From positions 1 through 10,872 of the IMG/VR virus record IMGVR_UViG_2609459844_000005: DNA of 10,872 nucleotides, one strand, 5' to 3'. Below, piece after piece: positions 3,001 through 6,000 of the stretch. Numbering within the stretch: the stretch's first letter is position 1; each line of letters opens with the position of its first letter. The position numbers were made by a program. The DNA comes from a virus. Taxonomy: Duplodnaviria; Heunggongvirae; Uroviricota; Caudoviricetes.

Positions 3001-6000
3001 TTGCGCATTGATGCCGAGATACGCTTCCAGTCTTCGCGGTCGTTGTCGATAACTTCATTTTTTGCCCAGCGATGGATGCTGCCGTCAATGTTTCCGGCAT
3101 CCACATCACCAGGCCAGAGAGCGTAGGCCAGTTCGTCATCCAGTGTTTTCCATGTCTGCTTGTATTCGCGATGAATGGCAGCAATGACCGGGTTGATTTT
3201 TCCTGTTGAATTTTCAGTGTGCTGTTGATTGGTTCTGGCGCGGGCGAGATCAACAACAGACGTGTATTTTCCAGTTTCCTTGCGTTCACCTTCGCGACGT
3301 TTTTTCCAGATGCGCATCTCTGCCTGAATTTCGGGCCATTTGGCACCAGGCTTACATTTATGCTTAACCCACCCGATGGCATGCAGCTTAAGCTCCGGAT
3401 ACATGGCGTTAACATCTGGCATTTTCATCAACGCTTCAACGATATGTCCGTCGAATGTTGCCATGTCTTCCTGCAACAATTCCTGTGCGCTAATAACCAT
3501 ATCAACGGTGATGTTTTCACATGTGTCGAACTTAACCATGACAGCGTTCTGTACTTCAGGGGCCAGCTTGTCAAAAGTGACGTTCATCGGATCGGATTCA
3601 GTCTCAACCGGGACAAAGGAAGCAGACTCCTCATCCCAGCGGTTTTCCTGCATATATTCAGCATCCCAGGAATCGAGGGCAGGGCGGGGTATACCGGGTT
3701 TATCCTCGCAAACAAGAAATTTATAAGCGCAGTCCTGAGCAGCCGGATAATGTTCCAGGAATTGCCAGTGAAATTTTGCTCGAGCACGGCGTTCGTCGCC
3801 AGCTTCAATGGCAGTGGCTACAGCGACTGCACCTTCTTCCTTTATTGCCTGTTCGTCCGGAATGGCGGCGCAAATAAAGACTTTACTCATTTTGTTTTAC
3901 CTCATTACAGATTTAAGGGTGAACAAATCCCTGCCATTGCTGGCATATAAGAATGAAATCGGATGTTTATTACGGAACTGTTTTAAAGACCTGCCGGGAT
4001 TTCGTTATTATCCTGGTGAATAACTTTATCGACCGGGTAACAGTTACCGGGAATTTTCTGTTCGGTTGCTGCAGTCACACACTCCTGCATTGTCCTGTGA
4101 ACACTGACTGCAATATCAACTGGCTCTCCGGAAACAAGAAAAACTGTCAGAACAAGTGCAAATGCTGTATTCATTGCCAGCATCCTTTTTGTATCGGACG
4201 TAAACGGGCCAGCATTGAAAGAATGCATATTTTATTTAATAGCTCCCGTTCGTGTTTTCTCTTGTTAATGGCATCTTCAGTAAATACAGGGTTACTGATA
4301 GTGACACCAATTTCAAAACAACCTTCAGACGTATTAACGTTTGGTAATAACGTTTCCATTATCGCGTCCTCAACAATGAATTTTGTGATGCGGTGCCTGG
4401 TGCCTCCAGGTGACGTTAACCAGTTAACAATTAACGCCGGATAACTCCGGATGGTTGGATAAGCTGTAGTGAGCGAATGCCGGATACCAAAACAGCCGTT
4501 CTTGTTGCCAGGGAGTTTGACAGGAAAGGTGACTGGCGAATGAAATGGGCGACTTACATCCCGGGTCATCCTGACGCTAATGATGGGTGGATAATACCTG
4601 GTGCGTCGTGGATACCATCACACTGGATGCCTCTACCAGAACCGCCGCAGGAGGTGCGCCAATGAACTGGCCTGAAGCATTTGCAATTACAGGCGTTGCT
4701 ATGGCTATCGCTTTTTTAGTATATGTTATTTGTCGGTGGGGGTAAAAACGTTCGCCGGGATTAACACCAAAGGAGGGAATATGTCGGATGATATATCACT
4801 GGCAATGGAAGGTGCGCTGGCTGTTGTTGCTGTTGTGGGCGTTTACTGCCTGGTTGTGTTTTTGATGGATCGACTAGGGAACTGAATTCATTACGATATG
4901 GGAATTCCCATATCGGGTAAAAACGGTTTGCGGTAAAGCGAGAGTTAAGTAGAATTGCAGCGGGTGCTTGAGGCTATCTGTCTCAGGCATGAACACCAAA
5001 AGGCAGATAGAGAAAAGCCCCAGTTAACATTACGCGTCCTGCAAGACGCTTAACATTAATCTGAGGCCCAATCTATGTCTCACAAATGTAGGTTAGCCTC
5101 TTACGTGCCGAAAGGCAAGGAGAAGCAGGCTATGAAGCAGCAAAAGGCGATGTTAATCGCCCTGATCGTCATCTGTTTAACCGTCATAGTGACGGCACTG
5201 GTAACGAGGAAAGACCTCTGCGAGGTACGAATCCGAACCGGCCAGACGGAGGTCGCTGTCTTCACAGCTTACGAACCTGAGGAGTAAGAGACCAGGCGGG
5301 GGAGAATCCCTCGCCACCTCTGATGTGTCAGGCATCCTCAACGCACCCGCACTTAACCCGCTTCGGCGGGGTTTGTTTTTTTCTGGCATTCTGGTTTACA
5401 ATTCGCACACCAGCCTGAACAACTGGCACCTGCTGCGCCAGCAGAGACAACCGATGGCGCACGATACCAAATTACACAATTCTGATGATTCTGCCGTCTT
5501 TGCCAGCAGGCACGGGCGGCGTTCCCGCACTTTCAAATCTGACTGGTTCCAGCATCCCCCATGCACTGAAGAACAGGCCGAGTGGCTAATTCAGTGCTAC
5601 CGCAGACACGGATACGAGATTAAGAAAGCCCTCAGCCTCGATTATCGTCACTGGATAATCTCCGTCAGGCTTCCTTACTCCGAACGCCCACCGCGTCCGT
5701 CCCGCACATTCCAGCAACGCATCTGGAGGTAACGTGCGGGTATTACTTCGACCTGTTCTGGTACCGGAACTCGGGCTGGTGATCGTTAAGCCGGGCCGTG
5801 AATCCATGCCGGTATTCCACAATACCCGGGTACTGGTGGAGCCGGAACCGAAAAGCATGCGTAATCTGCCGTCCGGGGTCGTTCCTGCCGTTCGCCAGCC
5901 GCTGGTGGAAGACAAAACATTGCTGCCGTTTTTCAGTAACGCACGGGTAATTCGTGCTGCTGGTGGTGCTGGTGCATTGTCTGACTGGCTGTTGCGCAAT

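Follow-up and report, generated by a model that had tools for sequence, protein, structure and literature searches.

What are the two short open reading frames (ORFs) that precede a hok toxin gene in a stretch of 10,872 nucleotides (nt), the IMG/VR virus record IMGVR_UViG_2609459844_000005 (positions 1 to 10,872; hereafter the window), and do they encode killers, regulators or nothing of use? The window is a Qin-like lambdoid prophage remnant. An initial annotation had singled out the two frames, ORF1 and ORF2, as unannotated single-helix micro-proteins with strong ribosome-binding sites, of a kind found among type I toxins, holin-like membrane disruptors and small membrane regulators. The finding is real and largely ordinary, and ORF2 is already known as a gene with published translation. 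On balance we think it probable that a lambdoid prophage carries ORF1 and ORF2 as two distinct accessory genes, each of them translated, whose products would be one-helix inner-membrane peptides acting by helix-helix contacts. The features that bear directly on this reading are listed here, with lengths of products in amino acids (aa).

4477..4665, plus strand: 62-aa C-terminal remnant of an EaA/DUF551-type gene (Pfam DUF551, E = 4.5e-14)
4649..4655, plus strand: ORF1 Shine-Dalgarno sequence AGGAGGT, 7 nt before the ATG, counted from AGGAGG
4662..4745, plus strand: ORF1, 27-aa single-helix membrane micro-protein (ATG 4662-4664, stop 4743-4745, product MNWPEAFAITGVAMAIAFLVYVICRWG)
4746..4780, plus strand: spacer of 35 nt holding the ORF2 ribosome-binding site
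4771..4776, plus strand: ORF2 Shine-Dalgarno sequence AGGAGG, 4 nt before the ATG
4781..4885, plus strand: ORF2, 34-aa single-helix membrane micro-protein (ATG 4781-4783, stop 4883-4885, product MSDDISLAMEGALAVVAVVGVYCLVVFLMDRLGN)

A direct check of the sequence found both ORFs at these coordinates, each behind an AGGAGG, as the initial annotation had claimed; this hexamer occurs four times in the 10.9-kb window, always on the plus strand, and two of the four occurrences are the ORF1 and ORF2 sites. The coupling of ORF1 to the upstream 62-aa ORF was also borne out, with the TGA of the DUF551 remnant (4663-4665) and the ATG of ORF1 overlapping as ATGA (4662-4665) and the last codons of the remnant (…EPPQEVRQ) encoding the ORF1 Shine-Dalgarno sequence. 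That sequence is kept in relatives, some of which have GGGGGAG or GAAGG instead, and the AGGAGG of ORF2 is invariant across 55 haplotypes save for one A/G change at 4771. RNA folds around the two Shine-Dalgarno sites were no stronger than those of shuffled sequence (z = +1.1 and -0.8).

Each peptide contains a hydrophobic helix with charged ends, as had been proposed. The best 18-residue Kyte-Doolittle mean is 2.48 for ORF1 and 2.87 for ORF2, the N-terminal flank is acidic in both, and an Arg follows directly after the helix, within the C-terminal tails RWG (ORF1) and DRLGN (ORF2). A profile comparison revealed no relationship between the two (hhalign probability 2%). Neither peptide had a significant profile match in Pfam, NCBIfam, PHROGs, PADLOC or the PDB; the only matches were below threshold, such as PTR2 at 17.9 bits (cut-off 27) and, with 2 of 13 members as queries, phrog_38566 at E = 0.0065.

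Judged from its sequence conservation, ORF1 is a real coding family, as yet unnamed, which we refer to by its motif as 'WPEAF…CRWG'. The frame in the window has the features that define the family: a length of 23-27 aa, an M-x-W-P-E-A-F start, a hydrophobic helix with G11, and a Y-x-[IV]-C-R-W-[GRW] end followed by the stop. A conservation check of the kind that the initial annotation had suggested turned up full-length ORF1 homologues of 55-70% identity by tblastn in 99 phage records, and the reading frames of both ORFs are under purifying selection. A homologue was present in 196 further plasmid records, mostly non-mobilizable plasmids of about 85-130 kb from Escherichia and Salmonella, which is in the size range of P1-like phage-plasmids. 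The following three copies illustrate the spread of the family.

VT2-Sakai / 933W: ORF1 is MTWPEAFANVGTVMAVVLVVYSICRWR, unannotated, in ATGA overlap with orf75, directly before the hok promoter and without ORF2
Virulent phage Av-05: ORF1 is MTWPEAFTTVGVVMAVAFAVYSVCRWG, in ATGA overlap with a 220-aa gene
P1-like SJ46: ORF1 is MSWPEAFAIVGVAMAIAAIFIFWG, in TAATG overlap with the upstream gene

Prophage Sp6 of E. coli O157:H7 Sakai likewise carries an unannotated ORF1, MIWPEAFAITGVAIAIDFLVYVICRWG. Taken from the phage and plasmid searches, the host range of the family covers Escherichia, Shigella and Salmonella, with weak matches in Klebsiella. A pattern scan of genome contigs yielded 3 real copies among the 120 matches listed, the rest being chance matches in high-GC genomes. 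One of these 3 is a 431-nt contig in the assembly of Xanthomonas pisi DSM 18956 (L282) that carries the exact ORF1 allele of Shiga toxin (Stx) phages; it is probably contamination by E. coli phage DNA.

The constancy of the expression design was examined in 195 ORF1 hits, obtained by a pattern scan of IMG/VR together with loci fetched beforehand. An ATG lies exactly 6 nt before the WPEAF motif in 188 of them, and all 188 of these starts stand in an ATGA context. Residue 2 is N, T, S or I, and the codons used for it all begin with A, so that the upstream TGA is always kept. The length is exactly 27 aa in 180 of the 195 hits, and the shorter variants (25 or 23 aa) are in-frame. Third codon positions vary most, and the ratio of non-synonymous to synonymous polymorphism (pN/pS) is 0.29 overall and 0.48 in the codons that the search pattern leaves unfixed, as compared with 0.68 and 1.29 in the other two frames. 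In pairwise comparisons with homologues 67-70% identical in DNA, pN/pS was 0.34-0.40 at a pS of about 0.6. The proteins encoded upstream of ORF1 are mosaic and EaA-like; they share an N-terminal 'TKERLLTIKQWRETYG' module and mostly have a DUF551 end (…WMPLPEPPQEV[RN]Q), of which the 'EV' codons are the ORF1 Shine-Dalgarno sequence itself. Full-length relatives of the 62-aa remnant in the window measure 112-473 aa.

The description of the two frames as unannotated holds for the most part for ORF1, which a few GenBank records do annotate as 'hypothetical protein' or 'bacteriophage protein' (e.g. ETJ68712.1) and which appears as a 45-aa version in the probable source strain. It does not hold for ORF2. 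The product of ORF2 is the RefSeq hypothetical protein WP_001278454.1, annotated at the matching site in O55:H7 strains, and the copy in Sakai prophage Sp6 is ECs_5710 (YP_009502606.1), which differs by one residue, V16I. In Sakai the neighbours of ORF2 match those of the window: the DUF551 gene, unannotated ORF1, ORF2, mok/hok, DUF968, RusA and Q. The gene is recognizable as a 34-aa frame, MSDDISLAMEGALAV[VI]AVVGVYCLVVFLMDRLGN, behind AAAGGAGGGAAT and upstream of hok. In the protein collection, where in-frame 51-aa and 52-aa extensions of the micro-ORFs served as queries, the exact ORF2 peptide was found on at least 997 contigs. In O55:H7 strain RM12579 (L003 1844-2055) ORF2 is duplicated in tandem with a 107-nt period, and both copies are annotated as WP_001278454.1. 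The peptide strings of ORF1 and ORF2 were absent from the main texts of the literature searched.

For ORF2, published ribosome profiling already supplies the check that the initial annotation had named. The Sakai copy, extended at its N terminus, is the novel gene XECs145 of Hücker et al. (2017), who predicted its product to be an inner-membrane protein with one transmembrane helix (PMC5597208). In lysogeny broth (LB), XECs145 gave 79.1 reads per kilobase per million (RPKM) of RNA and 346.1 RPKM of footprints, for a ribosomal coverage value of 4.35 and an ORF coverage of 0.99; in the brain heart infusion (BHI) control the values were 121.3 RPKM, 150.1 RPKM, 1.14 and 0.84, and in BHI under combined cold and osmotic stress they were 73.3 RPKM, 1.1 RPKM, 0.01 and 0.37 (PMC5597208). 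ORF2 is thus translated in vivo, according to these published Sakai footprints. XECs145 and ORF2 are the same gene and differ, apart from V16I, in the start: XECs145 was called from an upstream non-ATG codon, giving 53 aa, and because of this choice its authors saw no Shine-Dalgarno sequence (PMC5597208), whereas the conserved AGGAGG-ATG start gives 34 aa.

The conservation of ORF2 was assessed in 111 IMG/VR copies comprising the 55 haplotypes. The frame is intact in 107 copies, and the remaining four stop at codon 33. Thirteen of 24 variants are synonymous in the ORF2 frame, while reading in the two alternative frames gives 3 of 23 and 4 of 24 (P = 0.003), and 14 of 24 fall on third codon positions (P = 0.01). 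A diverged gut-metagenome locus (L361) holds counterparts of ORF1, spacer and ORF2; of its otherwise diverged spacer only AAAGGAGGGAAT-ATG has been kept, and pN/pS between its ORF2 and ours is 0.17, as against about 1.0 off-frame. An HMMER search over 1.84 billion cluster representatives returned seven ORF2 matches, all of them close relatives, and tblastn of ORF2 against deposited phage genomes returned none. A DNA search then revealed distant relatives in phages Evi, Tritos, mEp460_ev081 and HannyBb, in the form of a 30-aa gene, MVLVLKCALAIAAVMAIYCLAVVLMDRLSD, with a GTG start and an AGGAGG, which immediately precedes the hok promoter and has no ORF1 beside it (in Evi, L368 1185-1277). This 30-aa gene lacks annotation in three of the four phages. 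From these comparisons ORF2 is a genuine coding gene and a narrow orphan restricted to E. coli prophages.

The ORF1-ORF2 module is present in 673 of 5426 complete E. coli genomes, in 1469 copies that are nearly all chromosomal, with at most five copies per genome. Most module copies are at least 90% identical in DNA, so that intact frames within E. coli prove little by themselves, and it could be argued that the peptides do nothing, their frames persisting by recent common descent or, for ORF1, translation serving only coupling or mRNA protection. The frequent ORF1 alleles with a charged residue in the helix or an early stop, described below, would fit such a view. What makes it scarcely credible is the behaviour of the distant copies: ORF1 homologues that share only the 67-70% DNA identity given above keep length, start, stop and hydrophobicity under the constraint measured there, the shorter ORF1 variants stay in-frame, and ORF2 is constrained in its own frame alone relative to L361.

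The proximity of the two frames raises the question of whether they are halves of one 74-aa two-helix protein, either split by loss of one nucleotide in the G-run at 4737-4741, and hence a pseudogene, or joined by -1 slippage on U-GGG-GGU-AA. Database proteins of 70-74 aa do join both ORFs (P0004, P0007-P0009), and metagenome locus L366 (1575-1582) has G6 where the window has G5, which creates an in-frame 74-aa fusion. Of three variable spacer sites, two leave the residue read in the ORF2 frame unchanged, and an AlphaFold model of the natural 74-aa fusion P0008 has two helices, at a predicted local distance difference test score (pLDDT) of only 71, which is uninformative on packing. However, none of the 111 IMG/VR copies is fused, and the fusions occur at differing points (also in the T-run at 4712-4717 and near 4728) in assemblies of metagenomes or short reads, in which homopolymer errors are frequent. 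L361 has no G-run, and its two ORFs share a frame with a stop between them; the Shine-Dalgarno sequence and ATG of ORF2 are the best-conserved feature; and each ORF occurs without the other. A single split or slipped protein is therefore most improbable. We treated the ORF1-ORF2 fusions as rare mutations or homopolymer errors and largely rejected the idea of a frameshift fusion.

If ORF1 and ORF2 are two genes, their products might still be membrane-damaging toxins, type I toxin-like or holin-like, that depolarise or lyse the cell. Both peptides are short and strongly hydrophobic, each with one helix and charged ends, and in this they resemble the small hydrophobic peptides IbsC, ShoB and DinQ; they also adjoin a bona fide type I toxin gene, hok, at the place that relBE occupies in K-12. 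No Rfam family was detected in 4400-4961 at E values up to 1, and no antisense or small-RNA partner was found, although an undescribed RNA is conceivable. Promoter- and terminator-like sites are at chance level (on the minus strand, 2 weak promoter-like sites found versus 1.6 expected) and none points to an antisense gene; the minus-strand terminator-like site nearest to the two ORFs lies upstream of both, at a recombination junction (4450-4437). Neither Shine-Dalgarno region showed an independent promoter with a leader that hides the ribosome-binding site. Instead, both sites are strong and free of structure, and ORF1 is translationally coupled to an ordinary early gene; toxin mRNAs, being structured and repressed, show the reverse. 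Neither ORF matched HOK_GEF (PF01848) at E values up to 1, nor any toxin, holin or defence family, PHROG holins included.

The genomic position disfavours the holin reading, since the micro-genes lie outside a lysis cassette, between the DUF551 gene and hok and upstream of DUF968-RusA-Q, in an early or nin-type operon. ORF2 ranks with the better-translated of the novel ORFs in growing Sakai cells, and its dense footprints in healthy lysogens are unlike those of a tightly repressed killer. A genome may, moreover, carry as many as five copies of the module. Hence the toxin and holin readings entertained by the initial annotation were not supported: the lack of family matches, antisense RNA and structured leader, the early-gene coupling and the strong translation in healthy lysogens together disfavour a classical type I toxin, and we regard a toxic role for one or both peptides as unlikely.

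The neighbouring hok locus requires separate consideration. It comprises the following features, together with repeats and a palindrome that surround ORF2.

4740..4750, plus strand: direct repeat GGGTAAAAACG (11 nt), first copy, including the ORF1 stop codon
4894..4915, strand not applicable: perfect 22-nt palindrome CGATATGGGAA/TTCCCATATCG, equal to CGATATGGGAATTCCCATATCG, in the interval between the ORF2 stop and the hok promoter
4915..4925, plus strand: direct repeat GGGTAAAAACG, second copy
4962..5287, plus strand: hok/mok/sok cassette (Rfam RF01794, sok, 4962-5137, 120 bits; Pfam HOK_GEF, E = 1.2e-23)

The adjoining toxin gene reported by the initial annotation is thus part of a complete cassette, in which the hok mRNA leader runs from 4962, the mok frame from 5075 and hok from 5132 to 5287. 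The cassette has its own promoter, with a TAGAAT read by eye at about 4950-4955, and is separate from the micro-genes. From position 5118 on, the window hok is 98% identical to K-12 hokD (K-12 Qin, L234 13025-13289), which relB-relE immediately precede, so that the micro-genes do occupy the place of relBE, as had been noted. Because homology to K-12 starts only at 5118, relBE in K-12 has taken the place of the hok promoter and the sok region as well as of both micro-genes. K-12 contains no homologue of ORF1 or ORF2 in Qin, nor after yfdT in CPS-53.

A link between the micro-proteins and Hok was considered, in which they are membrane modulators or immunity factors or in which their expression tunes the downstream hok/sok promoter region. 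The association is frequent: hok follows within 700 nt in 39 of 85 ORF1 loci without ORF2, the ORF1 stop in VT2-Sakai is only tens of nt from the hok promoter, and ORF2 types stand directly upstream of that promoter in 65 of the 71 loci that were ascertained by ORF2 and extend far enough downstream, as do the Evi-type relatives that lack ORF1. It is not obligatory, however. Different genes or terminator hairpins follow ORF1 in the other 46 of the 85 loci, and ORF1 exists without hok in the virulent phage Av-05 and in P1-like SJ46; ORF2 lacks hok in 6 of the 71 loci and in L366. In addition, hok/sok has complete RNA-based control besides its own promoter, ORF2 has no Hok/Gef profile match, and the linkage may reflect shared mosaic modules only. 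We consider a functional tie to Hok quite unlikely. A stronger form of the idea, in which peptides of the ORF1/ORF2 type make up an unrecognised protein layer of the hok system, as membrane partners that blunt or tune Hok (a peptide 'immunity'), or in which ORF1 is instead an obligate membrane subunit of the EaA/DUF551 early proteins, strikes us as very unlikely.

The arrangement of repeats suggests how ORF2 came to stand, or ceased to stand, beside hok. The two copies of GGGTAAAAACG, alike at about 18 of 20 nt when extended, bracket a 175-nt cassette containing ORF2, and phages without ORF2, such as VT2-Sakai, have a single repeat copy and an ORF1 that abuts the hok promoter. These features suggest that the ORF2 cassette was inserted by illegitimate recombination at the joint between ORF1 and the hok promoter, or was lost there through recombination between the repeats. 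ORF2 is found only with one ORF1 clade (…AFAITGVA…) and in the L361 type, at a fixed gap of 34-35 nt (33 nt in L361). The palindrome lies at the cassette end, with EcoRI sites within and flanking it, and would form an RNA hairpin of -16.4 kcal/mol (z = -2.5); the hairpin lacks a U-tract and so does not qualify as an intrinsic terminator. The palindrome might bind a protein, affect RNA processing or stability, or insulate hok from what lies upstream. In the diverged clade the palindrome is weakened.

In the reading that we favour, of two separate genes for membrane peptides, ORF1 would be expressed as the distal cistron of an EaA/DUF551-type early gene. Since the upstream codons form the Shine-Dalgarno sequence and the TGA overlaps the ATG, ribosomes ending the upstream gene could re-initiate at ORF1, or fresh ribosomes could load at its strong site; ORF2 would be translated from its own conserved AGGAGG. 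Both products are predicted to span the inner membrane once, with the acidic N terminus out and the Arg-bearing C terminus in, and ORF1 would place aromatic residues at both interfaces (W3 and Y21/W26). Helix-helix contacts may be made through small-residue faces, G11xxxA15 in ORF1 and A14/A17/G20 in ORF2, and a conserved Tyr-Cys pair close to the cytoplasmic end may also take part. By analogy with bacterial small membrane regulators, the peptides would modulate a membrane protein or each other and would not be pore-forming killers.

Small inner-membrane regulators such as MgtS, MgrB, AcrZ, PmrR, KdpF and CydX have about 27-49 aa and bind a larger membrane protein in the bilayer. ORF1 and ORF2 resemble them in size, in having a single helix and almost no soluble part, and in their ordinary translation signals; they differ in that no sequence relationship is detectable (no NCBIfam or Pfam match) and in that they are phage cargo, whereas the regulators are core genes. 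With the type I toxins (Hok/Gef, Ibs, ShoB, DinQ and Ldr) they share the short hydrophobic single helix and, by location, a true Hok neighbour, and they differ from these toxins in having no antisense RNA, independent promoter, structured leader or profile match, in the open and strong ribosome-binding sites, in the coupling of ORF1 and in the high translation of ORF2 in healthy cells. They are the same kind of object as the 'Entero67K' set of Fesenko et al., 67,297 intergenic micro-protein clusters of Enterobacteriaceae comprising unannotated ORFs of 15-70 codons that evolve under purifying selection and whose products, for the most part hydrophobic or transmembrane, are suggested to make protein-protein contacts (PMC11188072). 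ORF1 and ORF2 did not appear in the portion of the supplementary tables of that study that was searched.

Several observations weigh against the reading of two membrane regulators. The commonest ORF1 allele (40 of the 195 viral-locus pattern hits, and the Sakai copy too) has an Asp in the middle of the helix, A17D, and nine ORF1 copies stop two codons early; because of these alleles, the constraint on the ORF1 helix is not strict. The 4-nt spacing of the ORF2 Shine-Dalgarno sequence is short, if usable, and the Sakai footprints could be shared among copies, with a median of two copies per positive genome. Many small hydrophobic peptides that look harmless are toxic on overproduction. Finally, the copies in the window may be silent: no plus-strand promoter-like site was found by the scan between the junction at 4437-4443 and ORF2, and this prophage has lost its early promoters, so that expression of ORF1 and ORF2 here is uncertain. 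By eye, we noted a perfect -35 hexamer TTGACA (4517-4522) followed 18 nt on by TGAAAT (span 4517-4546) inside the DUF551 remnant; this pair is under the scan threshold and is the sole candidate plus-strand promoter upstream of the two ORFs in the window.

The loss of the early promoters belongs to the wider setting of the window, which has the following layout.

1-1119, minus strand: integrase, followed in window order by the excisionase
1419-3890, minus strand: YdfE-type exonuclease, 823 aa, ORF intact
4171-4362, minus strand: dicB, with a DUF1482 gene before it in window order
4437..4443, strand not applicable: deletion/recombination junction, at which homology to the K-12 Qin dicB-ydfD-ydfE arm stops and nin-region DUF551 homology starts
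Downstream of the Q antiterminator gene: DNA methylase
9662-9734, 9745-9818 and 9835-9908, downstream of the DNA methylase: three tRNA genes
9989-10179, downstream of the DNA methylase: small RNA STnc100 (139 bits)

The plus-strand order is DUF551 remnant, ORF1, ORF2, hok/mok/sok, DUF968, RusA and antiterminator Q. With 96% identity to K-12, the Qin-like dicB arm runs to 4443, and homology to the DUF551 genes of other prophages begins at 4437; the junction thus fuses the dicB arm to the 3' part of a nin-region DUF551 gene. The immunity and replication region has been deleted, and dicF, ydfABC, dicA/dicC and the genes for replication are missing with it. The junction is absent from the complete RefSeq E. 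coli genomes, and the same structure is present in the draft genome of E. coli 2-156-04_S3_C1 (JNPF01000021.1). In K-12 Qin, ydfE is a pseudogene disrupted by IS2, whereas the 823-aa ORF of the window is intact.

Taken together, these results alter no major concept, since selected small hydrophobic ORFs of phages and prophages were already known to be numerous. What is new is that the 'WPEAF…CRWG' family has been defined, that it is invariably coupled through ATGA to EaA/DUF551-type genes, and that both peptide types recur just upstream of hok/sok. ORF1 is a clean example of a conserved phage micro-gene with a rigid expression design that standard annotation has missed; it is found in hundreds of E. 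coli prophages as well as in Stx-converting phages, in P1-like phage-plasmids and in one virulent phage. ORF2, an orphan limited to its lineage, is translated well; about 12% of complete E. coli genomes carry it, and it is common in the prophages of Shiga toxin-producing E. coli. The result corrects the start codon of XECs145 and favours annotation of the 27-aa family, and both micro-genes could reveal a host membrane target of temperate phages.

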